Translations under genes and position numbers: made by a program
Shown here: positions 772 to 28,846 of the stretch, piece after piece
How the letters are laid out: every line of letters begins with the position of its first letter
How positions within the stretch are numbered: the stretch's first letter is position 1
Notes under the pieces: generated by a model
The model's input: only the letters and a program-made list of their open reading frames with translations
Told to the model about the DNA's origin: nothing
Databases searched by the model: none
Source of the DNA: Promethearchaeum syntrophicum
GTDB taxonomy: Archaea > Asgardarchaeota > Lokiarchaeia > Sigyniarchaeales > Promethearchaeaceae
Reading direction: 5' to 3'
NCBI RefSeq assembly: GCF_008000775.2
Contig: NZ_CP042905.2
Span: forward strand, 1,350,001-1,382,000
Length of the DNA stretch: 32,000 nt

Positions 772-1539
772 TCAATTGTAATTTTTTAGCCAATTAATTG
801 AATTTTCAATAAAAAGATCAAGGTGATCATCCTTAAAGTCATGACCTGCTCCCAAAATTTTTACAAATTTATAATCTTCAGTTTGGGGAAAATATTGAAA
901 AGCTTCAAAGTTCCAATCATAAAGTATTCTTTCATCTTTATCCCCTTGGATTAATAAACTTGGGGTTAAATAATTCGCTAAAGCTCCTTCAACATCGAAA
1001 TTTCTTCCTTCTTTCAAAAAATCATATTGAATCATTAGGGGTTCATTATTTAGTGAAGGCATCAATCGAGGTTTGTTTGAAAATTTCGATATTAAAAAAG
1101 CCATAATAAAATGAAATTTCTTAACGTGTCGTGTAAAATAAAAAGCGGGTGCCCAAAAAATGGTTGCTCTTATGTTATCCAGATTTGCAGCTAAAGTGGT
1201 TAATCCTCCAAAACTTAAGCCCAATACGTTTATCTTATTATATCCTTTAGATTTTACCCATTCATGAACATCTTTTAAATCTTGAACTTGCTTTGACAGT
1301 GTTATTGGTTCGCGAGGATTTTTTCCCGATCCAGAAAAATCGAAGGTCACAGCGTCAAATCCTGCTTTGTTGAAATTCAGCGCGGTTTTTGTAAATCGCC
1401 CCCATTCTGTTTGATCTCCACCGAAACCATGACATATGATTACAACAACTGTTTTTTCATATGGTTGACCCGTTTCAAAATGAAGTCCATTTAAATTTCC
1501 CTTTGTGCTTCTGGGGATACTAATAATTTTTTGAGACAT
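772..1539 (-). CDS. alpha/beta-fold hydrolase (dienelactone hydrolase / esterase-like)
   Basis: 255 aa. HGFGG oxyanion region, nucleophile elbow GLSFGG, then GDKDE and GAGHDF, giving the Ser-Asp-His order typical of alpha/beta hydrolases. Confidence 0.75.
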   Translation of the reverse strand: MSQKIISIPRSTKGNLNGLHFETGQPYEKTVVVIICHGFGGDQTEWGRFTKTALNFNKAGFDAVTFDFSGSGKNPREPITLSKQVQDLKDVHEWVKSKGYNKINVLGLSFGGLTTLAANLDNIRATIFWAPAFYFTRHVKKFHFIMAFLISKFSNKPRLMPSLNNEPLMIQYDFLKEGRNFDVEGALANYLTPSLLIQGDKDERILYDWNFEAFQYFPQTEDYKFVKILGAGHDFKDDHLDLFIENSINWLKNYN

Positions 1540-1583
1540 TAATTCTAATTGTAGATTTCTTATCTTAAATCTTTAGAAGACTT

Positions 1584-3194
1584 TTAAGATTGTATGTAAG
1601 ACATCCCTAATTTTAGGGCTAATTCAGCTTTTATTAGTTCTTTTCCTAAATATGCTGCATGATCAAGCTTTGACACTAAATTGGATTTAATTATCATTTT
1701 ATAAAGAGATTCAGCGTTATCACCTACAAGAGTTAGAGTGGCATCTTTAAAATTTACAGAATTATTAAAATGTGTGATCATGATTTGTTTCTTTTTCTCA
1801 TCTATGTAAATCTTAAAATATCCTTTAGGATCCATAATAGCTGGTTGGTCAATAAAATCAATTTGTTTAATAGGTTCATTAAATGAAATATACTTGGGAA
1901 AATCTTGTTTTGACTTAAATTGGAACGCAGTAATTCCTAAATTCAAAGGAGGCACATGCAATTGATTTGCATAATAAGCTAATTTTATGCTTTCGCTCAA
2001 TTCTTTGAGATTATTTCGACATTTATTTGAAAATTCTGTGCTTAAAATTCCACTAACACCTAATTCTACTGCAATTATTGATAATAAAGTATTAATGCCT
2101 GAGGAATCCCCATCAATAAGTTCTGTAACATTTCCAAATCCCATGAAAAGTTCTGGTTTATGAATATATTCCTGATTTTTTAACTCATTATATGTTTGAT
2201 CTATTCTTAATTTTAGAGATGATAAAATTTCAATACTTGAAGTAAATCCCGGTGAAATTGGAACTCCAGTTATCGGATCCATTAGTATCTTAGTAAAACC
2301 ATTTTTTATCAGCACTTTCCATAAATGAATTAGTCTTTCAATCTTTTTTTGGGATGTTAGTGGATTGTGTTCTTTTTGTGAGGTGGGAATGATTACTAAA
2401 GCTGTGTCTTTGTTTAAATCCAACAAATCTGAATAATTTTCAACAGTTATACTAAGCACCATCTGAGCTCCTGCATTAATAGCAGAATGTATTTCGTCAG
2501 AATTTATGCTATCGATGCTAAAAGGAATTTGGAATTTCTTTTTTAACTGTGATATCATCTCAAAAATTACATCACTATGGTTTTCATTTGCAATGCATCC
2601 AAAATCTATTACATTTACCCCATTTTTTATATAACTTTCAACTTTAAAGGATATATCATCAAATGAAAGTTTAGGCGCATCAACAATTTCTCCTATCAGT
2701 ACGGGAGGTAAATTTGGATTGAAAAAAATATTATTTTTCTTATTTTTTAAGATAAATCCATTTGGATGTGGTTGATTTCTAAAATCTTGTCGATTTTTTT
2801 CAATTATTAACTCCAAATTCTCTTTTTTTGTAATTCTATATAACTTATCTGCTGGTGTTTCTGGAGAAAAATTAAATGGATCAAAATTTTTAATTAATTC
2901 GGGTAAATTTACTAAAAATCTTGGGCCTTTTTTTATTTTAGATGAAAATGGTGATTTTATCACTTTTAAATTCCAAGGAATTAAACCTGAAGTAATTACT
3001 AAATCGAAATCATTAGCATCAAATTCAGATAAAGTAGCGGTTAATATTTTTGGAGAGATTAGTGAAATTATTGGGATTTGTGCTTGAATAATTGTTATTT
3101 CGTATATTGATTGTAGATCGCTCCAATCCAGTAATTTTATGTCATTAAATGCGTCTCTTCCTGTAATTAGAAGGATCCGTGTTTTTCTATTCAT
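1584..3194 (-). CDS. long archaeal dihydropteroate-synthase-like (pterin-binding) protein; candidate pterin-condensing enzyme of H4MPT biosynthesis
   Basis: 536 aa. The central region looks like a TIM-barrel pterin-binding domain (VNVIDFGC..., SIDS..., MVLSI...). The size matches the long archaeal DHPS-like proteins. The gene sits in a cluster with mptG, an mptD-like gene and an AfpA-like gene. This call is a recollection of the family, not a search result. Confidence 0.5.
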   Translation of the reverse strand: MNRKTRILLITGRDAFNDIKLLDWSDLQSIYEITIIQAQIPIISLISPKILTATLSEFDANDFDLVITSGLIPWNLKVIKSPFSSKIKKGPRFLVNLPELIKNFDPFNFSPETPADKLYRITKKENLELIIEKNRQDFRNQPHPNGFILKNKKNNIFFNPNLPPVLIGEIVDAPKLSFDDISFKVESYIKNGVNVIDFGCIANENHSDVIFEMISQLKKKFQIPFSIDSINSDEIHSAINAGAQMVLSITVENYSDLLDLNKDTALVIIPTSQKEHNPLTSQKKIERLIHLWKVLIKNGFTKILMDPITGVPISPGFTSSIEILSSLKLRIDQTYNELKNQEYIHKPELFMGFGNVTELIDGDSSGINTLLSIIAVELGVSGILSTEFSNKCRNNLKELSESIKLAYYANQLHVPPLNLGITAFQFKSKQDFPKYISFNEPIKQIDFIDQPAIMDPKGYFKIYIDEKKKQIMITHFNNSVNFKDATLTLVGDNAESLYKMIIKSNLVSKLDHAAYLGKELIKAELALKLGMSYIQS

Positions 3195-3767
3195 TCAAAT
3201 ATCAACATTCTCTAATTCAATTAAATCTTGAATTATTTCTTTTGGATGTTTAAAGAGAGAAACATTTGGAAATTTTTTTAGGTTTAAAGCATTTTGACAG
3301 TTAAATTCATCAATATGTATCATAATTTTCTCACCATTAGGGATCTCTGTTTCAATTTCTCCACAAACTATATCGCAAGGAACGAGTAATATTTTTCCAG
3401 AACCTTTTATCATCTGTGAAAATATATTTGTTATTAGAGTGTCCGCGATACCTATACTCATTTTTGCAACTGAATTGGAAGTAACTGGGCTAATAATTAA
3501 TGCTCTATATTTATTTAGATTAAAACGGGCGCTCACAACATATCCTGGAGATTGACCGCTATCGTAAAAGATAGAATTTAAATGCTCTTTATTTTTTTCA
3601 TGAAGATCTTGAATTTTTTTAAGCACTCCATACATTTTTGCAACCGTTTTTCCCGCTTCTGAGAAAAATATATCGATTTTCCACTTCTTTTCTACTAATT
3701 GCTTCAATACTTCATAACTATCCCGAATATAATGACCTGCGCCAGTAATTCCCCAAGCTAACCTCAT
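3195..3767 (-). CDS. archaeoflavoprotein AfpA/DmrB-like FMN protein; candidate dihydromethanopterin reductase
   Basis: 190 aa. The N-terminus MRLAWGITGAGHYIRDSYEVLKQL matches the AWxITGAGH flavin-binding start of AfpA/HFCD-type flavoproteins. Its stop codon directly abuts the start of the DHPS-like gene. Confidence 0.6.
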   Translation of the reverse strand: MRLAWGITGAGHYIRDSYEVLKQLVEKKWKIDIFFSEAGKTVAKMYGVLKKIQDLHEKNKEHLNSIFYDSGQSPGYVVSARFNLNKYRALIISPVTSNSVAKMSIGIADTLITNIFSQMIKGSGKILLVPCDIVCGEIETEIPNGEKIMIHIDEFNCQNALNLKKFPNVSLFKHPKEIIQDLIELENVDI

Positions 3768-3788
3768 AAAATAATCCTTAGTTTTTAA

Positions 3789-4886
3789 TTATTTAACTTT
3801 ATTGCTCTTATTGTTCGATTTAATTGGGAGGTAGATAAAATCTAATATATTTCCTTCTGCTGCTTCAAGTTGAAGATTTTTTATAATAGGTTGTATATTG
3901 CCTCCAATTAAGCCTTCTGCTATGAACGCTGCACCTTGAGCGGCTCTTTTTGCAATATTACTATAAGTTTTCATAACTCTTACCGGTGCAATGGTTCTTA
4001 ATTTCTCGTCAAATATCCTTTCAATGAATTTCTCATTAGCTAAACGACCTGATAATAGAATAAAATTTGGAGGGGTGGCTTGGTTAAACACTGAACTTAT
4101 TGCAAAAACACCTTTCACAATGTCATCAACATATGACTGGATTGCAATTTTTGCTTGGGGCTCATCTTTTGTACGGAAAAACAATTCTTCAGGAGTGTTA
4201 TTTTCATTTCCCCCAATTGAAATCGCACCTCCTTTATAAATTTCAGTTTTTGTCAGAGGATTCATTAAATATGCTAATTCTGCATCCAGAGAACCACTTG
4301 CTTTAAAACCCATGACGTTGGAGCCACCAATTCCATCAATAATTTGTCCCCTTTCAATCGCTATAATTGCTGAAAAAGCCGCGCCTAACTCGATCATAAT
4401 ATAATTCACATCTGAGCATTGAATTTTGCACATTTCCATAATATCGCGTATTCCAACTACAACAGAGCATACTTTATCTGCAGTCCCCAGATCAATTCGG
4501 TTTATTTTGCGAAATTTTTTTACTGTCGGTAAATGTTTGATTCCAGGTATAACATAAGCTTCTCCTCTTTTCCATTTCATTTGTTTTAATTTATGTAATA
4601 TTTTCTTTAAACCGACAATTTGTGATGTTTTTTCAGTGCTAAGTGCCATATAATATATATCTTCATTCGTTAATTCTTGCACTTTTTTTATAGGATGTCC
4701 AAATCCGCTTGGTGCTATCATGAGATCAAAGGGTTCTATTTCTTCTAATGATAAAAATAATAAATCTGGATTTTTCATTATTAATTTTGATTCAATTGAA
4801 GTATCTATGCAGATTTCATTAGTACCCACATCGTAACCAAAAATGTCCCAAGATGACGTTCCAGGGTCAATTCCAACAACACGCAT
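3789..4886 (-). CDS. ASKHA-fold (sugar kinase/Hsp70/actin superfamily) protein, DUF1464-like; function unknown
   Basis: 365 aa. N-terminal phosphate-1-like motif VVGIDPGTSS. Later DLGTADK and ELGAAFS segments resemble the ASKHA phosphate-2 and adenosine regions. The gene is embedded in the H4MPT cluster. Confidence 0.5.
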   Translation of the reverse strand: MRVVGIDPGTSSWDIFGYDVGTNEICIDTSIESKLIMKNPDLLFLSLEEIEPFDLMIAPSGFGHPIKKVQELTNEDIYYMALSTEKTSQIVGLKKILHKLKQMKWKRGEAYVIPGIKHLPTVKKFRKINRIDLGTADKVCSVVVGIRDIMEMCKIQCSDVNYIMIELGAAFSAIIAIERGQIIDGIGGSNVMGFKASGSLDAELAYLMNPLTKTEIYKGGAISIGGNENNTPEELFFRTKDEPQAKIAIQSYVDDIVKGVFAISSVFNQATPPNFILLSGRLANEKFIERIFDEKLRTIAPVRVMKTYSNIAKRAAQGAAFIAEGLIGGNIQPIIKNLQLEAAEGNILDFIYLPIKSNNKSNKVK

Positions 4887-6077: not shown

Positions 6078-7100
6078 TTAAAAAATTTTCAAAGAAAAAC
6101 CTGAGTTATTGGGTTTTGTTTGAATTATTTTTCCTCCCGGAGATATTGAAGAATCTTCTAATCTGGAACTAATATATTTATAAATTTCCTTTGATTTTTC
6201 TTCTGAATCGGTAATGACAAATACTCCGGGACCAAAAGAAGAAATTCCGACTGGAACTTTAAATGTGGAATAAATATCTCTTAATAAATTAGAAATACAT
6301 TCATGCTGAAGCCCAATTTCAATTTTTTTGAAACCATGGTTATTGATAAACCAAAGAGCCTCAGCAAAATTGTCTAAATCTTTGTTAATAATGGATGGAA
6401 CTATTTGCATTAAAATTCTATGGGATATTTTCTCCACTTCTTCAAGAGGAATTGGAGTAAAATCTTGGAAAATGTTTTGCTCTTCAACATTATTGGCACC
6501 TTGCTTTATTTTTGGAATTAAAAGGAGGATGTTCCAATTTTCAGGCATTACATGGTGAAAAAATGCCATAGCTGGTTGTGCTTTGGATGCTGAAGAAGGT
6601 AAAAATGAGGTTTTTTCTCCATTTTTTCCATAAGAATGCCCTAAATCAAGTATAAACCCGCCTTTTTCGAATATTTGATACCCAATCCCTGATGTTCCTC
6701 CTCGTTCTACTAATGATGCCATTTCTTTAATAGTTAGATTAATTTTCTTTAGATAACATAGACCTTTTACAATTGAAAGGAGAAATTGAGTTTTTGAACC
6801 TAAGCCAACATGAGGAAGGATTGATTTTTTCACCGTAATTTTAATATTCTCATATTTAATATTAAGTTTGGATTCCAATTTGGATATAATGAGATGAACA
6901 TGCTTTAAATATTCATCTGGACCAAAAAATGTGAATTTTTCTCCTCTATTTACTATAGAATCATCATTATCATTAAATTCGATTATAAAATTAGGATTTT
7001 CTAACGCAAATCCAAAACCACCGTCGATTCTTCCTAAGGATCCATTAAGATCGATTAAAGAAAGATGAAGTCGTGATGGAGATCGGATTTGAAACCTCAT
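6078..7100 (-). CDS. mptG: beta-ribofuranosylaminobenzene 5'-phosphate (beta-RFAP) synthase, GHMP-kinase fold
   Basis: RFQIRSPSRLHLSLIDLNGSLGRIDGGFGFALENPN closely matches the N-terminus of the MJ1427-type enzyme (TPSRIHxGLIDLNGxxGRVDGGxGxAL). GLGSKTQ is the GHMP glycine-rich loop. I placed the start at the internal ATG (7100) rather than the track start (7154), which would overlap the divergent gene. Confidence 0.85.
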   Translation of the reverse strand: MRFQIRSPSRLHLSLIDLNGSLGRIDGGFGFALENPNFIIEFNDNDDSIVNRGEKFTFFGPDEYLKHVHLIISKLESKLNIKYENIKITVKKSILPHVGLGSKTQFLLSIVKGLCYLKKINLTIKEMASLVERGGTSGIGYQIFEKGGFILDLGHSYGKNGEKTSFLPSSASKAQPAMAFFHHVMPENWNILLLIPKIKQGANNVEEQNIFQDFTPIPLEEVEKISHRILMQIVPSIINKDLDNFAEALWFINNHGFKKIEIGLQHECISNLLRDIYSTFKVPVGISSFGPGVFVITDSEEKSKEIYKYISSRLEDSSISPGGKIIQTKPNNSGFSLKIF

Positions 7101-7168: not shown

Positions 7169-8536
7169 ATGACAGACCTCGAAGGTATTTCGAAAAAATT
7201 ACTAGAAAAAAAAACTCCCAATCATATCATTATTGAACGGTTGATTCAAGAGTATAAAACCTTCAAAGAGTTACCAAAAGATAATCTCACCAGTATGGCC
7301 AATGCTATATTGAAAGAAAGTCAAAACTCCATGATTTCAATTGAAGAAAATTCAATTTTGAAAAACATAATTCAAATTCCAGAATCACATGTCACGATGG
7401 GAGAAGGTGGAGTTGGTTGTCGTGGGAGGGGGGATTTCTTTGTACATGAATTGTTAACAAAAATTTCAGAAACGCAAATTCATCCTTTTATTCCTCCCAG
7501 TTCACTAGATGATACGGGAGCTGTCAAATGGTATAATAATGAGGATCAAGATCCAATTATTATTTTATCAAAGATGGAAGGAATGCATAGTCGATTGAGC
7601 GATTTCCCTTTTTTAGCAGGATTTCATGTTACGCGCGCTGCTTTACGTGATATTTATGTTAAAGGAGGAATACCAATTTCATTAATGGTCGATGTTCATC
7701 TTGCTGATGATGGAGATATCGGAAAACTTTTTGATTTTCAAGCGGGGATTGCTGTAGTTGCTGAATTATCTGGAGTACCTATTACTGCTGGCTCTACCTT
7801 AAGAATTGGTGGAGATATGGTGATCGGAGAGAGGCTTACTGGGGGAATAGCAGGGATTGGGATAATGAAATATCCGTTTTTCCGTAAAAACATCCAAATT
7901 TCCGATGATATTCTAATGATTGAAGGAGCAGGTGGTGGAACTATTGCTACAACTGCACTCTATTCAAACAATCCGGAATATTTGATGGAAACAATTAACA
8001 TAAATTTTCTTAAAGCGAGTAAATGTTTACTAAATTCTCCTAATTTATGCAACTCTATTCATTCAATGAGCGATATAACTAATGGTGGGTTAAGAGGGGA
8101 TTTATATGAAATTTGTAATGAAGCTAACTGCGGTTTTCAAATTGATTTAACTAAGGTAAAAGCTCTGGTAAATCCTAAAATATTGGAATTATTGGAAACA
8201 AATGGTGTTGATTATCTTGGTGTATCGCTTGATTCTCTAATGATATTTTGTGATCCAAAGATTTCTCTTGATATAATTAACAAATTAACAAGCGAAAATA
8301 TTAAGATCAGTAAAATTGGTCATTGTATCGAAGAAAAAGAAATATTTTTTGAATCTGGAACTAATAAGAGAAAAATTTTACCACGATTTCGTGAATCTGC
8401 TTATACTGAAATAAAAAAAGTAGTAGATTTACATCAAATAAATGAAGACAAGATAAAAAACCAAATTAAATCTACTTTTGAGAAATCCATGCAAAAAAGA
8501 AATGAAATCATACAATACATCAAGAATCTTGAATAA
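7169..8536 (+). CDS. AIR-synthase-related (PurM/ThiL/HypE superfamily) ATP-binding protein
   Basis: The LDDTGAV motif is the DDxA(V) N-domain motif of the PurM superfamily. GGIPISLMVDVHL and SDITNGGLRGDL are typical AIRS N- and C-domain segments. The track start at 7139 is TTG. The ATG at 7169 avoids overlap with mptG. Confidence 0.7.
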   Translation: MTDLEGISKKLLEKKTPNHIIIERLIQEYKTFKELPKDNLTSMANAILKESQNSMISIEENSILKNIIQIPESHVTMGEGGVGCRGRGDFFVHELLTKISETQIHPFIPPSSLDDTGAVKWYNNEDQDPIIILSKMEGMHSRLSDFPFLAGFHVTRAALRDIYVKGGIPISLMVDVHLADDGDIGKLFDFQAGIAVVAELSGVPITAGSTLRIGGDMVIGERLTGGIAGIGIMKYPFFRKNIQISDDILMIEGAGGGTIATTALYSNNPEYLMETININFLKASKCLLNSPNLCNSIHSMSDITNGGLRGDLYEICNEANCGFQIDLTKVKALVNPKILELLETNGVDYLGVSLDSLMIFCDPKISLDIINKLTSENIKISKIGHCIEEKEIFFESGTNKRKILPRFRESAYTEIKKVVDLHQINEDKIKNQIKSTFEKSMQKRNEIIQYIKNLE

Positions 8537-21432: not shown

Positions 21433-22083
<651 letters not shown>

Positions 22084-22826: not shown

Positions 22827-23378
22827 CTAAATCTCATTATTTTCGATTTTAAGCGCATTTTCATAACATCGTTTGGCTATTTCCATAAACATTTCTTCAA
22901 CGTTTAAACCTTCTTTTGCAGAGGTTTCTATATGAAATGCATCCAACCTTTCCGCTAAATCCTCTGCGTCTTCATAGGATACTCGCCTTTGGTCTTCAAG
23001 ATCTTTTTTGTTCCCAATAATTATCAATGGAATCGTGCCTGTTGCTTTCTTCAAAGAACTAATCCAACCTGGAAGTCGCAATAATGATTCGGGTTTTGTA
23101 ATGTCATAAACTCCTATTGCACCTTGGCTCCCTTTGAAATAAATGTTTCGCATACTGCTAAATTGTGCCTGCCCCCCAATATCCCAAAGCAATAACCTAA
23201 GTAGAACACCTTCCATTTCTATATCTTTTATAAGGAAATTTGTTCCTATTGTTTGTTTTAGATCTGTAGAGAAAGTTTTTTTAATGAATCTCAAAATAAG
23301 ACTGGTTTTTCCGACATTTTGGGAGCCGAAAAGGGGAATTTTGAATTTATACTGTTTTTTATTACTTTGATTACTAAT
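22827..23378 (-). CDS. Rab/Ras-like small GTPase; 5' end extended beyond the track ORF to include the P-loop
   Basis: The track ORF (22827..23294) has G2 TIGTNF, G3 WDIGGQ, G4 GNKKDL and G5 ETSAK but lacks G1. My translation upstream in the same frame gives ISNQSNKKQYKFKIPLFGSQNVGKTSLI, where G1 is GSQNVGKT. The frame is open back to the TAG at 23399-23397. There is no ATG/GTG/TTG upstream of the P-loop, so I propose a start at ATT 23378. Confidence 0.85.
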   Translation of the reverse strand: MSNQSNKKQYKFKIPLFGSQNVGKTSLILRFIKKTFSTDLKQTIGTNFLIKDIEMEGVLLRLLLWDIGGQAQFSSMRNIYFKGSQGAIGVYDITKPESLLRLPGWISSLKKATGTIPLIIIGNKKDLEDQRRVSYEDAEDLAERLDAFHIETSAKEGLNVEEMFMEIAKRCYENALKIENNEI

Positions 23379-23384
23379 TGAGAT

Positions 23385-23390
23385 CTCCTC
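23385..23390 (-). promoter_or_regulatory. Shine-Dalgarno-like GAGGAG, 6 nt upstream of the candidate ATT start of the GTPase
   Basis: The minus strand reads GAGGAG ATCTCA ATT. An identical GAGGAG plus 6 nt spacer precedes the ATG of the gelsolin-like gene (26572-26567, then ATG at 26560). Confidence 0.35.
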
Positions 23391-23521
23391 GAGAAGCTAT
23401 TAAAAAATTTAGTCTGAATATACTTTCATTTTTAGTATTATTAATGCTTCTAGTTTGGATAATCACTTTTAATAAAAAATAAATGATTATAAGAGATGCG
23501 GGAGACACATTATTCTTGATA

Positions 23522-23935
23522 ATGAATACTGACGGGAAAAAAAAAAAGGAGTTTTTAGGTCTAATTTTGTTAAATTTAAGTGGAATTTTATGCATAATAT
23601 CCGAGTTTATTCTTTGGACAAATGAGTTTAGTATATTTAACTTATTTCAGCTAGAAATAGCAAATAGTATTATTTATTTAATCCCGTTAGTTGGAGGTTT
23701 TGGAATACTCCTGAGCGCTTTAAATATTGCTATATTCAAACGAAAATCATATAAATTTTGGTATATCTTGTTGGTAATTATTTTAAATTTACTATTTTAC
23801 TTTTTGCTTGAAGTTTTCTCAAATCAAGGGGCATATCTTTGGAGATATATGGGAATCTATACAACAATTTCTGCATTACTATGTCTTCTTTTTGGAATTT
23901 TATTCCAAATTAATGCAAGAGCTGAAAATCCTTAG
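23522..23935 (+). CDS. small four-helix membrane protein, unknown function
   Basis: The protein has hydrophobic helices throughout. The start is uncertain: ATG 23522 is followed by an A11 tract at 23537-23547, while the track start at 23483 adds unlikely residues. Confidence 0.5.
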   Translation: MNTDGKKKKEFLGLILLNLSGILCIISEFILWTNEFSIFNLFQLEIANSIIYLIPLVGGFGILLSALNIAIFKRKSYKFWYILLVIILNLLFYFLLEVFSNQGAYLWRYMGIYTTISALLCLLFGILFQINARAENP

Positions 23936-23966
23936 AATTATTATGAAATATTTGTATGTGTAAAAA

Positions 23967-24896
23967 ATGATGGAAAATAAAGAAAATAAAAAATCCAATT
24001 TAAATTCAAATAATATAAAGAAAGAGGATAAAGATATACCACTAGATATTACTGAAGATCAATTCTATGTTGCTTTAGGTCATGAAATAAGAAGAAAAAT
24101 ATTAAAAATTATTGGTGATAATGGTATTTCAAGCTTTTCCACTTTTAAAAAACAAATCCAATCCAGTACAGGAACTATATATCATCATTTAGAAGTAATG
24201 AAAGAATTAATTATTCAAGATAAGAAAAAAAAATATCATCTAACTAATTTAGGAGAGCATGCTTATCAGATTTTAAGTAATAATATTGAATCTATTGAAA
24301 TTGTGGCCAAACAAGATGAAAAAACTGAGTTTAACAAAGAAAATAGGTTATATGATTATTTTTTACTTAAAAAGTTATTTGATTATTTCTCAAGTAATAC
24401 GAATAAAACCTTTTTAATTTCATTCGGGATTTTACTATTAATTGGTGTGTTAAGCGGAATAAATAACTTGCAAATATTTTTATTCTTTATTCGACAAGCC
24501 CAAGTTGGAGAACCATTATATTATTATTTTATTATGGATGCAATTACGATTTTTATCAGCTATTTTATTCTTATAACCACAACGGAGATTTTGAGTTATT
24601 TTATCTTTAACAACCATAATAACTGGAAAAAATTTCTCAATATCCTTTCAATTCCGTATATACCAATTCTTATTTACCTCGGAATTTATGCAATTTCAAA
24701 TTTGGTCTTCCCTACAATTAATCCTTTGTTCTTTGATATTTTATTGCTCCTTTTCCAGGTTTGGTCAATGATTTTATTAGCAAAAGCTATTTCAATTGTA
24801 AAACTTGTTAAATTTGAAAGAGGGTTATTATTGGCAATTTTAATTGATTATGGAACCTTTATGATTATGTTAATTATGAACAATCCATATCGATAA
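23967..24896 (+). CDS. ArsR-type winged-helix protein fused to a C-terminal polytopic membrane domain
   Basis: ALGHEIRRKILKIIGDNGISSFSTFKKQIQSSTGTIYHHLEVMKELIIQD...YHLTNLG is a typical ArsR/SmtB wHTH. Residues from about 150 to 309 form about five hydrophobic helices. Confidence 0.7.
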   Translation: MMENKENKKSNLNSNNIKKEDKDIPLDITEDQFYVALGHEIRRKILKIIGDNGISSFSTFKKQIQSSTGTIYHHLEVMKELIIQDKKKKYHLTNLGEHAYQILSNNIESIEIVAKQDEKTEFNKENRLYDYFLLKKLFDYFSSNTNKTFLISFGILLLIGVLSGINNLQIFLFFIRQAQVGEPLYYYFIMDAITIFISYFILITTTEILSYFIFNNHNNWKKFLNILSIPYIPILIYLGIYAISNLVFPTINPLFFDILLLLFQVWSMILLAKAISIVKLVKFERGLLLAILIDYGTFMIMLIMNNPYR

Positions 24897-24916
24897 GGGA
24901 ACTAAAATCATTAAAC

Positions 24917-24927
24917 AAAAAAAAAAA
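24917..24927 (-). terminator. oligo-T (T11 on the minus strand) just downstream of the longin-like gene
   Basis: The A11 run on the plus strand equals T11 on the minus strand. It lies 8-18 nt after the stop at 24935. Confidence 0.35.
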
Positions 24928-24934
24928 TAATATT

Positions 24935-25810
24935 TCAAGTTAAACTGATATGGACTATCTTTATTTCTTCTACATTATTAATTTCTTCTAATTTAGCTTT
25001 AGTTTCTGAAAAATCCGTTTTATCTAAGGGATTAAAATAGCCTTCGTAGATACACTGTCCTTTTTGTTGGCAAATTCCTGAAGTATAAAGAAATGGGAGC
25101 CCCATCTCTTGGAAAACTACACTGATCCTTTTTAATGTGTCTGGAGAAAGAGAACCATTAAAAATAACTGATATTTTTAAAACTTGCTTTTTTTCATAAG
25201 GCATAATATCGATTTTAAAATTTTCTTTTCGTTTTTGAAAGACTATAAAGAAATTTTTTCGTTTTTCAAGAAATACTTCTAAATCCCTTAGAATATTCTG
25301 TGGTAAGGCTAGTGATTTTTTTCGCCTCAAATCTTTAAATGGTAAAATTATTCCGTGGGTTTGGGCTTGAGTTATTTCAAAAAACTCTGAAAGTTCAAGA
25401 ATATTATTTGTAAGAAAATCGAATTCCTCATTAATTTCTGCTTCATAATTCAAAGGAGGATTGTTGATATATAACGCTTTATAAATCATTTTTCTTTCTT
25501 TTATAATTTGGATAAATTTTTTGAATTCAGTTTCATAGGCTGATAAATTTGGAGACTCTTCTTCAATAATCTTTGTTATCATTGCCATTTCTTGTTTTCC
25601 TCTTGCCCAAGCCGAGGGAAGCATAAAAAAATAATTGGCCGTATTTAATTCATTAGAAAATGCGTGTGTAAAGAAACCTGGTGTCGCGGCATCCATCAAT
25701 CGTTTAATTTGAGCTATATCATCTTCCGATATTATATCCTCAATATGTTGTGGGACACTATACAAAATGTCGGGACCTATTATTGGATTAAAATAAATAA
25801 ATAAGAGCAT
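24935..25810 (-). CDS. hypothetical protein: N-terminal longin-like (FLCN/DENN-type) domain plus C-terminal ACT-like domain (inferred)
   Basis: The beta-beta-alpha-beta-beta-beta-alpha pattern is read from the sequence: LLFIYF / DILYSV / EDDIAQIKRLMDA / GFFTHAF / ANYFFMLPS / EMAMITKII. The segment FFMLPSAWARGKQEMAMI resembles the F-x-F-x-D-S-x-ARG motif of folliculin/DENN longin domains. The C-terminus has a beta-alpha-beta-beta-alpha-beta pattern. The start is taken at ATG 25810; the track uses TTG 25822. The CDS is likely real, but the domain calls are tentative. Confidence 0.45.
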   Translation of the reverse strand: MLLFIYFNPIIGPDILYSVPQHIEDIISEDDIAQIKRLMDAATPGFFTHAFSNELNTANYFFMLPSAWARGKQEMAMITKIIEEESPNLSAYETEFKKFIQIIKERKMIYKALYINNPPLNYEAEINEEFDFLTNNILELSEFFEITQAQTHGIILPFKDLRRKKSLALPQNILRDLEVFLEKRKNFFIVFQKRKENFKIDIMPYEKKQVLKISVIFNGSLSPDTLKRISVVFQEMGLPFLYTSGICQQKGQCIYEGYFNPLDKTDFSETKAKLEEINNVEEIKIVHISLT

Positions 25811-25858
25811 TTTCTGAACCAAGCAATGATATTATGATAATAATTTGTTTTTTTTTCT

Positions 25859-26560
25859 TTAAATGTTTGTTATCTTTTTTTTGGAATTCAAGAATAATGT
25901 CGGAATCAATATTAAACTCGCCATTCCAAGGATTATAATTGATCCCTGAAAATTCCATTTCCATATAATATGATATATTAAAAGAATTATAGACATATTT
26001 GTACATATTATATTCAGTACAGATTTTGAGAGTAAATATAATATTTCTAGAGAAATCAATAAAATCAGTGAAATTATATTTAGGATCAGATTAATCTGCA
26101 TGAATCTGGAATAGTCTGAATCAAAAAGAAATAATTCATTTAACTGAGCTGAAATACTAAATTCGTTAAAATTTAATGTGATAGATAAGCGAATCACGGC
26201 GAATAACAATAATAAAAATATGAATAGAGCTAAGATTTTTTGCAGTAAATCTAATTTCGCAATTTTGTTATATTCAGCTAATTCCTCCTTCTCAGATTTG
26301 TTAATGATTGAGGTTAGCATCTCTTTTATATGATCAGGGCTCTCGTTCTTTATTAAATGCACTTTATAAAATGGATATTCTGCTTTTTTTCTTGATAAAG
26401 CTTCTTTTGCCATCATTGAGATTTTAGGTGAAATATATTTACCTTCCCAAACATACATTATCTTTTCATCTTTATCAATCAACAAGCCCATATCTTTTTC
26501 AGTCAAATTCTCTGCTTCAATCCATATTGCATTAACAAATTTAAAGATAATCATTACCAT
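25859..26560 (-). CDS. membrane-anchored protein with an N-terminal gelsolin-repeat-like domain (inferred)
   Basis: AIWIEAENLTEKDMGLLIDKDEKIMYVWEGKYISPKISMMAKEALSRKKAEYPFYKVHLIKNESPDHIKEML follows the gelsolin-repeat pattern (w-x-ie ... D-x-y-l-l-D ... k-I-y-v-W-x-G-k ... e ... A ... v ... E-x-x-P). Four hydrophobic helices follow. ATG 26560 is preceded by GAGGAG. Confidence 0.45.
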   Translation of the reverse strand: MVMIIFKFVNAIWIEAENLTEKDMGLLIDKDEKIMYVWEGKYISPKISMMAKEALSRKKAEYPFYKVHLIKNESPDHIKEMLTSIINKSEKEELAEYNKIAKLDLLQKILALFIFLLLLFAVIRLSITLNFNEFSISAQLNELFLFDSDYSRFMQINLILNIISLILLISLEILYLLSKSVLNIICTNMSIILLIYHIIWKWNFQGSIIILGMASLILIPTLFLNSKKKITNI

Positions 26561-26658
26561 TCTCAACTCCTCAACTACTTCTTTTCAATAACAAAACCAA
26601 AACTTATTAATTATTTATCCAATTTCCATTATATAATTATCGCATTATATGATTCACC

Positions 26659-26910
26659 ATGAAATTCCGATTAGTTTTTGAAACAACAACAAAAAATGGG
26701 AAAAAAGTACTTTTAAAATTTAAAGTACCCCCATCAAAGCACCTTGGGCTAATAAATTTTCTCAAAATTGCTATGGAGCACGGAGAAGAAGTCAATTTTG
26801 CTGTTGAAAAAATATCTGAAGATAAAAAGGAATTTAGCAAAATCAAAGGTAAATTTTTATTAACAGATGAAGAAGTAAAATCAGAAACTGAAGAAATTAA
26901 AAAGAAATAA
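26659..26910 (+). CDS. small charged hypothetical protein (83 aa)
   Basis: The ORF has an ATG start, lies 16 nt upstream of the same-strand CDP-alcohol phosphatidyltransferase gene, and has a Lys/Glu-rich C-terminus. I recognise no family. Confidence 0.4.
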   Translation: MKFRLVFETTTKNGKKVLLKFKVPPSKHLGLINFLKIAMEHGEEVNFAVEKISEDKKEFSKIKGKFLLTDEEVKSETEEIKKK

Positions 26911-27676: not shown

Positions 27677-28846
27677 ATGACCCAACTAATTTGTGGAAAT
27701 TGTCATAAAGTGTATGATTCTAGTAAACACGGTAGATGTCCCAAATGTAAAAGGACTACAACTCAATTCTATGAATTTTCAAATAGTGATGATTTTCTTC
27801 AGGCACAAATTCCCAAAATAGAGCAATTTAGAAAGGATACGGGATTACAAGGGCTAGTAAAAGGGCTAAATTGTGTGATAATTAACACTGAACCAGAAAA
27901 TCAAAGATTAGCTGTTAAAGAAATTTTAAAAAACACAGGATTTAGTTATGGACATTCTTTCCAAGATACGAATAATATAATAACGGTTTTAAACGCTAAT
28001 AACTCTGCCGATATATTGGTAAAATCTCGAAAAATAGATAAAAATCCCTTTCGTTCATATAATATCAGACCAAAAACACAAAATTTTCCAAATACTAGAC
28101 TTGAATCATTTGTTTTTGAAGTTTTAAATTTGTCTAAATACGTTGAGATTCAAAAAGATCAAGATGTAAAATTTTTAACCGATATTATTGATAGAGATAA
28201 TTATTCATTTATCCAAACAATGCCATCAAAATTTATCGGAACTTCATATGGTTTTATCCAGTGGCATAAGAATAAAGGTGATTATCACCCAGATGAATTT
28301 AAATCTACTTCAAGCGATATTAAGAAACCTGACTTCGAATATCTGAAAAATATCAAAGAATTAGATCACACCGCAACCAGGGTTAAAGCACAAGATAGAG
28401 ACTCTGCAATTATAGAATTTATGAAATTAACTAATTATAAATTCGATTTTGCGATATATGTAAATCATTTAAATTCAATAACGAATGTAGCGCGATTGTC
28501 CGCCAAAGATTTTGCAATGGTTTTTACATCTGGAATAACCAATTACAAGAATCCTGAAGAATCTGGCCCTACCGAAAGATTCACTTATAATTATGGCCCA
28601 AGGGTACATCATATGGCATTTAACACTGATAAAATTGAGGATTCCTTTGAAGGTCTAAAAGCAAATGGAATGGATTTTCTAATTCAATTAGTGGGTTCGG
28701 AAAATGAAGGTTTAAAACAAACATTTTCAGTGCAATCTCCAAACACACTTATTGTTAACGAATATATTCATCGTTATGGTGATTTCGACGGATTTTTTAC
28801 TCGAAGTAATGTGACTGATTTAACAAGATCAACTGATAAACAATAA
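27677..28846 (+). CDS. zinc-ribbon fused to a 4-hydroxyphenylpyruvate-dioxygenase-like (VOC superfamily) domain
   Basis: The N-terminus CGNCHKVYDSSKHGRCPKCK is a CxxC...CxxC ribbon. The C-terminal half has LDHTATRV, HHMAFNTDKIEDSFEGLKANGMDFL and GLKQTFS...NEYIHRYGDFDGFFTRSNVTDL, which parallel the HPPD His/His/Glu iron-ligand segments (DH, QHIA, LLQIFT...EIIQR..GFGxGNF). A strong SD-like AGGTGAT lies at 27667-27673. Confidence 0.6.
   Translation: MTQLICGNCHKVYDSSKHGRCPKCKRTTTQFYEFSNSDDFLQAQIPKIEQFRKDTGLQGLVKGLNCVIINTEPENQRLAVKEILKNTGFSYGHSFQDTNNIITVLNANNSADILVKSRKIDKNPFRSYNIRPKTQNFPNTRLESFVFEVLNLSKYVEIQKDQDVKFLTDIIDRDNYSFIQTMPSKFIGTSYGFIQWHKNKGDYHPDEFKSTSSDIKKPDFEYLKNIKELDHTATRVKAQDRDSAIIEFMKLTNYKFDFAIYVNHLNSITNVARLSAKDFAMVFTSGITNYKNPEESGPTERFTYNYGPRVHHMAFNTDKIEDSFEGLKANGMDFLIQLVGSENEGLKQTFSVQSPNTLIVNEYIHRYGDFDGFFTRSNVTDLTRSTDKQ

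Follow-up and report, generated by a model that had tools for sequence, protein, structure and literature searches.

A 32,000-nucleotide (nt) stretch of the chromosome of Promethearchaeum syntrophicum MK-D1, the first Asgard archaeon brought into culture, was analyzed (contig NZ_CP042905.2, positions 1,350,001 to 1,382,000; about 30% G+C). It is referred to below as the window, and all coordinates are window coordinates. A first-pass annotation had marked five genes in it as an island of eukaryote-type proteins, and all five open reading frames (ORFs) were recovered at the positions it had given. They encode a Rab-like small GTPase (22827-23378, minus strand), a small membrane protein with four transmembrane (TM) helices (23483-23935, plus strand), a protein with a probable ArsR-type winged helix-turn-helix (HTH) and a probable Yip1 domain (23967-24896, plus strand), a longin-ACT protein (24935-25810, minus strand), and a gelsolin-TM protein (25859-26560, minus strand). 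The products of the last two ORFs are 100% matches to DSAG12_01826 (291 amino acids, aa) and DSAG12_01827 (233 aa), respectively. A domain survey covered the ORFs of the window other than four upstream ones (772-4886). As scanned or with Pfam matches on record, the remainder consists of housekeeping or unassigned ORFs that carry no eukaryote-signature-type domain, and the five genes therefore form a patch of such domains. The housekeeping content includes ribosomal proteins S2 and S8e, SRP19, phosphoribosyl pyrophosphate synthetase, a P-type ATPase, a GH127 enzyme, and sugar-nucleotide/glycosyltransferase genes. No tRNA and no Rfam match was found in the window, and a literature search by the locus tags DSAG12_01823 to DSAG12_01827 retrieved no paper.

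The gelsolin-TM and longin-ACT genes had been described as a convergent minus-strand pair. They are a pair, but they lie in tandem. The same holds true for the plus-strand pair, which had been called divergent: its two genes are also in tandem, and they are divergent only with respect to the GTPase gene. The reported 48-nt gap between the gelsolin-TM stop codon (25859) and the longin-ACT ATG (25810) is present; it contains an A9 run and no oligo-T. The reported T11 run was read directly on the minus strand at 24927-24917, 7 nt past the stop codon of DSAG12_01826, and it is likely the archaeal oligo-T terminator of the minus-strand pair. At the other end, the gelsolin-TM gene starts with a Shine-Dalgarno (SD)-like GAGGAG (26572-26567), a 6-nt spacer, and an ATG at 26560 (26558-26572, minus strand). 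From these operon signals, co-transcription of both genes is predicted, as one unit that would extend from the SD-led ATG at 26560 to the T11 run after 24935. The five genes would thus be split over three transcription units, i.e., gelsolin-TM/longin-ACT, 4-TM/HTH-Yip1, and the GTPase gene. A sigma-70 promoter scan of the window yielded background level only, and no hairpin terminator was found in it.

For the two key ORFs, profile searches of DSAG12_01827 led to a gelsolin-type domain, and structure and profile searches of DSAG12_01826 led to a longin plus an ACT-like fold. The AlphaFold2 (AF2) model of DSAG12_01826 has a predicted local distance difference test score (pLDDT) of 82.9, and residues 1-144 form a block with pLDDT values of 83-95. 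This block, the longin domain (25376-25810), contains strands at residues 2-8 and 12-19, a helix at 29-41, strands at 45-50, 56-65, and 73-82, and helices at 89-105, 109-114, and 123-144. It matches the longin order b1-b2-a1-b3-b4-b5-a2-a3, as the first-pass annotation had proposed. In a Foldseek search of the PDB, the matches other than ACT-like ones were exclusively NPRL2/Npr2 (9o5d_D, 9v0j_A, 9o5a_H, 7t3b_B, 9h4q_T; E 3.6e-4 to 3e-3), and a check of the contents of these entries verified that they are GATOR1/SEAC entries holding NPRL2/Npr2. The nearest structural neighbours of the domain are thus longins of the GTPase-activating protein (GAP) class. A likeness of the C-terminal half to NPRL2 was rejected, because the long Foldseek alignments have root-mean-square deviations of 13-17 A.

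An exhaustive profile search with DSAG12_01826 yielded 474 cluster representatives at E<=1e-3. The complete longin-ACT architecture is seen in about 35 of them, a longin domain combined differently in many, and a stand-alone C-terminal domain of about 145 aa in about 13. In an alignment of 161 homologous longin domains, two sites turned out to be nearly invariant. G12 was found in 151 and P13 in 148 of the 152 domains that are ungapped there, and R70 was found in 153 of 155. The G12-P13 pair (25772-25777) is located at the start of strand 12-19 and aligns to G20-P21 of NPRL2. R70 (25601-25603), in the motif S-x-W-A-R-G, is positioned in the b4-b5 loop, like R78 of NPRL2 and R164 of FLCN, by alignments that are weak. 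Alignment of the deep profile with human NPRL2 by hhalign covered residues 1-42 against 9-47 (E=1.6e-4, probability 51%). In the global mode R70 was placed on R78 (E=0.013), and in a local alignment with FLCN the sequence SAWARG was placed on SLARG (R164, E=0.1). The full 291-aa family profile returned only noise against PDB sequences. A GP motif before strand 2 together with an arginine finger is common to FLCN, NPRL2, SMCR8, C9orf72, and a class of Asgard longins, and the GP motif is absent from the non-GAP longins adaptin, TRAPP, and DENND (PMC12290439). NPRL2-like longins are abundant in Asgard archaea, and some of them are joined to modules of two-component signalling; GTPases of the Rag family that carry a fused longin domain have been reported as well (Liu et al. 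2020/2021, 10.1101/2020.10.19.343400). Because NPRL2-like Asgard longins and the GP/Arg motifs have already been published, the class of longins to which DSAG12_01826 belongs is known.

Comparison with NPRL2 of GATOR1, with folliculin/SMCR8, and with the Asgard GP-motif longins revealed the same longin fold, the GP at the start of strand 2, and, going by the weak alignments, a corresponding arginine in the b4-b5 loop. The DSAG12_01826 family has S-[WL]-A-R-G at this loop, compared with SLARG (R164) in FLCN and YSRN (R78) in NPRL2. Like the NPRL2-type and Asgard GP longins, the family shows genomic links to GTPases of the Rag-, Arf-, and Rab-like kinds, either as neighbouring genes or as fusions. 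In contrast to NPRL2 and FLCN, DSAG12_01826 has neither the NPRL2 C-terminal domain nor a DENN domain, but instead an ACT-like domain bearing the motif C-x5-C. Whereas the NPRL2, FLCN, and SMCR8 systems have a partner longin (NPRL3, FNIP, or C9orf72 type), the neighbourhood of DSAG12_01826 encodes no such partner. It also differs from the GATOR1 relatives in that Pfam NPR2/Folliculin models do not match, the neighbouring GTPase is Rab-like and not Rag, and its GAP role is a predicted one.

The C-terminal domain of DSAG12_01826 (24938-25363, about 140 aa) ends in an ACT-like beta-alpha-beta-beta-alpha-beta fold, with strands at residues 209-218, 240-247, 252-259, and 280-289 and helices at 223-235 and 268-275 in the AF2 model. 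The ACT-like assignment of the first-pass annotation was corroborated by Foldseek matches to the NikR C-terminal domain, PGDH, homoserine dehydrogenase, and IlvN over the last 80 or so residues. The NikR C-terminal domains were at the top of the list. The matches comprise 77-83 aligned residues at about 2.3 A, and the highest TM(target) score is 0.78 (77 residues, 2.3 A). Neither DSAG12_01826 nor ten stand-alone homologues of the domain matched any of the Pfam ACT families. The sole family match of the domain was a weak one to the NCBIfam entry PRK08577, annotated as 'hypothetical protein' (E 7e-5 to 4e-3); apart from it, Pfam and NCBIfam scans of DSAG12_01826 yielded nothing. A hairpin with the motif G-[ILV]-C-x5-C-x-[YF]-E-x-Y (C247-C253; C-x5-C at 25052-25072) is invariant (71-72 of 72 sequences, with the stand-alone proteins counted) and might be a metal or redox site. 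It is conceivable that the domain senses a ligand. The stand-alone proteins of about 145 aa, among them P0080, P0086, P0088, P0092, and P0097, constitute a family that has no Pfam model.

The second partner in question, the GTPase, was identified as Rab-like by the first-pass annotation, and this could be confirmed. The ORF, read from the upstream stop codon, matches Pfam Ras with E=1.2e-46 over positions 1-160 of the 162-position profile. The best solved relatives are Rab21, Rab14, Rab22A, Rab5, and Ypt1 (E about 1e-38), all of the top 50 or so PDB matches are Rab/Ypt proteins, and a Thorarchaeota Rab is also among the matches. The motifs G1 to G5 are complete: GSQNVGKT (G1, 23327-23304), the T in KQTIGTNF, WDIGGQ (G3) with the catalytic Gln, GNKKD (G4), and ETSAK (G5). 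A C-terminal cysteine motif for prenylation is absent; the protein ends with ...ENALKIENNEI, which contains no Cys.

The start of the GTPase gene is unusual. The stretch from the in-frame upstream stop codon (TAG, 23399-23397) to the P-loop lacks an ATG, GTG, or TTG start codon, and for that reason automatic gene calls have been shortened to 155, 124, or 108 aa and have lost the P-loop. The 155-aa version is the MK-D1 product given by gene callers. Instead, an SD-like GAGGAG (23390-23385), a 6-nt spacer, and an ATT (23378-23376) were read on the minus strand (23376-23390); with ATT 23378 as the start the protein comprises 183 aa. A canonical start is missing in 8 of 10 orthologues examined, and all eight have GAGGAG (GAGGCG in one), six nt, and ATT, the latter 7-9 codons ahead of a conserved YKFK. 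The arrangement is found, for example, at locus L002 (about 7075-7095) and also in L003, L005-L007, L009, and L012. The remaining two orthologues (L011 and L013) have an ATG within the same short leader. Among 34 starts in the window, only those of the GTPase and the gelsolin-TM genes have GAGGAG at -12 to -7. These patterns suggest that the GTPase is translated from a conserved near-cognate AUU start, which possibly keeps its translation low. Ten orthologues preserve the P-loop region and show synonymous changes there, and thus an N-terminally truncated pseudogene was ruled out.

The genomic association of the longin with GTPases did not yield a uniform picture. MK-D1 and the majority of the other Lokiarchaeales have the 4-TM and HTH-Yip1 genes, on the opposite strand, between the longin gene and the GTPase gene. 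In Lokiarchaeum ossiferum and at L013, a relative with 39% identity, the Rab-like orthologue is situated directly 3' of the longin gene on the same strand. The L. ossiferum longin protein has 295 aa, and the adjacent GTPase was called with 206 aa. In a distant subfamily with 26-29% identity, which includes Sigynarchaeum, the divergent neighbour is a Gtr1/RagA GTPase (402-431 aa, 89-98 bits) in five of the five loci with enough flanking sequence, and two loci add a downstream Ras-like gene. Gene fusions are common: in 92 sampled longin homologues the domains Arf (23), Ras (19), Gtr1_RagA (11), PAS (about 16), and histidine-kinase ATPase (7) were found, and about a quarter of the sampled homologues are fused to GTPase domains. 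Judged from gene order and fusions, the association between longin and GTPase is frequent and independently recurring, yet not universal. The first-pass proposal that the longin serves as a GAP or guanine nucleotide exchange factor (GEF) module for a GTPase thus gained comparative support from the nearly invariant GP/Arg residues, the adjacency of GTPases in three subfamilies, and the frequent fusions. Its further suggestion, that the juxtaposition signals a coupling of GTPase and actin, was not substantiated, as the adjacency of gelsolin and longin genes is confined to one order-level clade, the Lokiarchaeales.

Two observations were made on the flanks of longin homologues. Downstream of a distant longin-ACT homologue, L014 encodes a 185-aa Ras-family protein (7252-7809, minus strand) with the P-loop GNSDAAKAEF instead of GxxxxGK[ST]; this degenerate P-loop may indicate a pseudo-GTPase. 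The members of a third subfamily, with 30-38% identity, are flanked by a gene for a protein of about 97 aa upstream and a gene for a protein of 405-420 aa downstream. The small protein begins MKIVTVNVPESY...SRSELIRCAVR and resembles, by eye, a CopG/NikR-type ribbon-helix-helix; it is encoded at L024 3451-3741, L028 2307-2597, L032 2414-2707, L033 3512-3808, and in an antisense region of L026 (about 3381-3686). The downstream protein is conserved and begins MEWGII.KENF...

In DSAG12_01827, a gelsolin/ProGel-like N-terminal domain (about 26297-26548) is connected through a helical linker to four TM helices (25889-26236). The first-pass annotation had described a gelsolin-repeat protein with four TM helices; the gelsolin assignment and the helices stood, but repeats are not present, because there is one domain only. 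The top PDB match of the family profile of the N-domain was the Asgard ProGel 7c2f_B before the L. ossiferum sequence was added. With this orthologue included, the top match was villin 9jus_v (3.5e-11), with alignments to all six villin repeats, and further matches were villin 9jvt_v at 1.7e-6, another at 5.2e-4, 7c2f_B at 1.5e-4, and gelsolins at about 0.06. The syntenic L. ossiferum orthologue is a soluble protein of 92 aa with 31% identity over the whole domain; its match to PF00626 (E=0.0058, 16.9 bits) is below the gathering threshold (GA) of 21. A word-indexed homologue search with the gelsolin-domain alignment found close relatives only. The distribution of charges suggests an N-in, C-in topology and hence a gelsolin domain held at the inner face of the membrane. 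The notion that the TM part is a duplicate of the neighbouring 4-TM protein was rejected (hhalign E=0.31).

Asgard gelsolins have been described in the architectures ProGel, 1DGelX, and 2DGel, and a TM form is not among them (Akil et al. 2020, PMC7444086). Like the ProGel mini-gelsolins (PMC7444086; PDB 7c2f), DSAG12_01827 contains just one domain of the gelsolin/cofilin type, about 85 residues long, and it shares with the Asgard mini-gelsolins a hydrophobic-x-Y-x-W-x-G-K core. The gene at the same position in L. ossiferum, Harpocratesius, and two other metagenome-assembled genomes encodes a soluble protein of 92-146 aa, and these syntenic orthologues from other Lokiarchaeia resemble ProGel. 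Unlike ProGel, 1DGelX, and 2DGel, the MK-D1 protein and its close relatives carry in addition the linker and the TM helices. Only the Promethearchaeum clade has this fusion, in all 16 homologues with at least 54% identity. The claim of novelty in the first-pass annotation had to be narrowed, as NPRL2-like Asgard longins were already published, but the literature searched contained no gelsolin with a TM anchor.

The plus-strand pair begins with the 4-TM protein (150 aa), which has no Pfam or NCBIfam match. Its gene adjoins the HTH-Yip1 gene also in L003, L005-L007, and L009-L012. The product of the second gene (309 aa) combines a probable ArsR-type winged HTH (about 24048-24281) with five TM helices (about 24408-24878). 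The HTH assignment was supported by profile scores of the MK-D1 protein (SdpR 2.2e-5; ArsR NF033788 7.5e-4; PH1932, 1uly, 0.0037; DUF7347 6e-6 with 26.9 bits, just under its GA of 27.6) and of the L011 orthologue (HTH_5, 28.1 bits against a GA of 22). Hydropathy gave the expected numbers of TM helices for all three membrane proteins, i.e., four for 23483-23935, five for the C-terminal half of 23967-24896, and four for 25859-26560. The generic '5-TM domain' of the first-pass annotation is, judged from orthologues, probably a Yip1 domain: the MK-D1 protein scores below the threshold of PF04893 (14.1 bits, E=0.043), and the L012 orthologue scores 38.3 bits against a GA of 28.6 (E=1.6e-9, profile positions 10-171 of 173). 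Eukaryotic Yip1/YIPF proteins are Rab-interacting 5-TM proteins; the probable Yip1 domain of MK-D1 likewise has five TM helices, and it is encoded beside a Rab-like GTPase gene. The N-terminal fusion to an ArsR-type HTH and the score of the MK-D1 copy below the Pfam threshold distinguish it from these proteins. From its domains, the HTH-Yip1 protein is predicted to be a membrane-tethered DNA-binding regulator. Its Yip1 domain might be a membrane docking site for the unlipidated GTPase, a candidate role that should be taken with great caution; Yip1 domains are common in prokaryotes (arCOG02054), and therefore the connection of Yip1 and Rab is only a lead.

Relatives whose 291-aa protein is at least about 50% identical keep the order of the five genes. 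A recent insertion of the HTH and 4-TM pair in MK-D1 was ruled out, because the pair is also present down to about 50% identity; it is absent only in L. ossiferum and L013. In Harpocratesius repetitus (L010 6962-8945), about 2.2 kb with four small opposite-strand ORFs are inserted between the longin-ACT and HTH-Yip1 genes, and no orthologue of the GTPase was found within this 12.9-kb locus.

Taken together, the results suggest that the locus encodes a small-GTPase control set at the membrane, in which DSAG12_01826 is the predicted GAP-class longin regulator of the neighbouring Rab-like GTPase. We give this reading a probability of about 0.5. The longin domain, probably as a dimer, would dock on the GTPase and would supply R70 in trans beside the catalytic Gln of the GTPase itself (WDIGGQ), and thereby act as a GAP. 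The ACT-like domain would gate this activity in response to a small ligand, a metal, or the redox state. Four TM helices would keep the gelsolin domain on the cytoplasmic side of the membrane, and this domain may bind actin; the GTPase might dock on the Yip1 domain of the HTH protein. That the longin has GAP activity, that this GTPase is its partner, and that gelsolin and GTPase influence each other are predictions from domains, motifs, and gene order. The link to gelsolin and actin is the weaker part, since its basis is only the gene order within the Lokiarchaeales. The arrangement is reminiscent of bacterial MglA/MglB, where a Ras-like GTPase and its roadblock-dimer GAP are encoded in one operon, in that a small GTPase gene lies near the gene for a regulator of the roadblock/longin superfamily in a prokaryote. 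However, MglB is a roadblock protein and not a longin, and it has no such arginine finger, and the GTPase of MK-D1 is Rab-like with a catalytic Gln of its own.

Several observations weigh against a GAP-centered control set. Eukaryotic GAP longins act as heterodimers with a second longin subunit, and no second longin gene is present in the cluster. The sequence likeness to NPRL2 is limited to about 40 residues, the FLCN alignment is not significant, and Pfam searches with E up to 1 yielded nothing, including NPR2/Folliculin, for DSAG12_01826 and ten longin-only homologues. In MK-D1 the GTPase gene forms a transcription unit of its own, at a distance of 1.5 kb and past two opposite-strand genes, and the subfamily with 30-38% identity is mostly devoid of a GTPase neighbour. 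Regarding gelsolin, DSAG12_01827 itself has no Pfam or NCBIfam match, and its AF2 model is poor (pLDDT 51, N-domain <50, from 16 close sequences), so that the fold is supported by sequence profiles only. No gelsolin neighbour of distant longin homologues was seen at the loci examined, and Thor ProGel binds actin very weakly (PMC7444086). Lastly, the housekeeping flanks (CDP-alcohol phosphatidyltransferase, an 83-aa protein, ribulose-phosphate epimerase, translin, and NAD-epimerase) keep their order in the same genomes and are as syntenic as the five genes, and therefore synteny alone is no proof that the five genes work together.

The last point leads to the main competing explanation, which we consider unlikely but to be taken seriously: the gene order could simply be inherited in a stable Lokiarchaeales stretch, with each eukaryote-signature-type gene active in its own pathway. 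Besides the equally conserved flanks, the distribution over three transcription units would fit this explanation, as would the loss of the gelsolin adjacency outside the clade and the finding that GTPase genes of MK-D1 do not, as a rule, share operons with genes for roadblock or longin proteins (Tran et al., PMC10933270). Mere inheritance would, however, not account for the independent recurrence of longin-GTPase adjacency with Gtr1/RagA in distant homologues, for the many longin-GTPase fusions, or for the 48-nt spacing of the gelsolin and longin genes without a terminator. Moreover, L. ossiferum and L013 lack the two TM genes, yet the longin and GTPase genes are still adjacent.

If the longin and the GTPase do act together, the mode of action could still differ from that of a GAP. 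The longin protein might be a GEF, an effector, or a scaffold platform, as in TRAPP, Mon1-Ccz1, or Ragulator, and its arginine and GP might be structural or used for binding. Most platforms of longin and roadblock proteins act as GEFs (PMC10933270), the alignment of R70 to catalytic arginines is weak, the cluster lacks the second longin subunit, and the fusion of the same longin domain to PAS/histidine-kinase modules in many homologues would suit a general signalling adaptor. On the other hand, the GP motif distinguishes the GAP longins (FLCN, NPRL2, SMCR8, and C9orf72) from other longins (PMC12290439) and is found here in 151 of 152 domains, the arginine is nearly as constant (153 of 155), and the closest solved structures are NPRL2/Npr2, all of which makes a role other than GAP rather improbable. 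Least probable of all appears to be that the 291-aa protein serves primarily to sense a ligand, a metal, or the redox state, as a regulator with DNA-binding partners, that its C-x5-C domain is NikR-like, and that the GTPase is incidental. The NikR matches at the top of the Foldseek list, the invariant C-x5-C-x-Y-E, and the existence of the domain on its own are in agreement with such a sensor. The same is true for the ribbon-helix-helix-type gene directly upstream in 5 of 6 loci of the 30-38%-identity subfamily and for the ArsR-type regulator as convergent neighbour in the Lokiarchaeales clade. But this explanation leaves the invariant GP/Arg site and the GTPase fusions and adjacencies unexplained, the ribbon-helix-helix was recognized by eye from the sequence, and two cysteines are few for a metal site unless it is shared across a dimer.

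A broader version of the preferred reading, i.e., GAP-class control of the Rab-like GTPase, was also considered, and it must be regarded as quite improbable as a whole. The locus would be a forerunner of the eukaryotic longin-GAP nutrient or stress switches of the GATOR1 and folliculin type. The GP/Arg GAP, set by the new C-x5-C ACT-like sensor for a metal, redox state, or metabolite, would control a Yip1-recruited Rab-like GTPase, and the nucleotide state of the GTPase would control the release or activity of the Yip1-fused, tethered transcription factor. The co-transcribed anchored gelsolin would tie the switch to lokiactin at the membrane or at protrusions.

Some further observations were made in the vicinity of the five genes. 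The 83-aa protein (26659-26910, plus strand; MKFRLVFETTTKNGKKV...) is encoded directly upstream of the CDP-alcohol phosphatidyltransferase gene and is probably co-transcribed with it. It has no Pfam or NCBIfam match and has orthologues in L001-L011, with 54-91% identity across the Lokiarchaeales. Farther downstream, a 389-aa protein (27677-28846, plus strand) with an N-terminal zinc-ribbon-like CxxC...CxxC has no Pfam match and is conserved only in the Promethearchaeum clade. On the other side, the upstream end of the translin-family gene (21433-22083, minus strand) varies by gene caller between 213 aa and 216 aa, and a GTG start would give ten leading Asn codons (MNNNNNNNNNNYELEE...).

Small GTPases and longin/roadblock proteins each number in the dozens in Asgard genomes. 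The genome layout of MK-D1 is generally no help in matching regulators to GTPases (Tran et al., PMC10933270), and, because operons of the two are generally missing, this matching is hard and a locus that offers a concrete pair is useful. The locus analyzed here is an exception in that it presents a GAP-class longin and a Rab-like GTPase as a testable pair in two cultured species, MK-D1 and L. ossiferum. The cluster is built mostly from known parts, as gelsolins and NPRL2-like longins are already catalogued in Asgard archaea. Nevertheless, the fusion of ArsR and Yip1 domains would be an unusual membrane-tethered regulator, and the ACT-like module with its C-x5-C motif is an undescribed domain family. 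The membrane-anchored gelsolin would be the first candidate for a protein that joins lokiactin to the membrane, and the pair of longin and GTPase bears on the pre-eukaryotic origin of GTPase control of the GATOR1/folliculin type.

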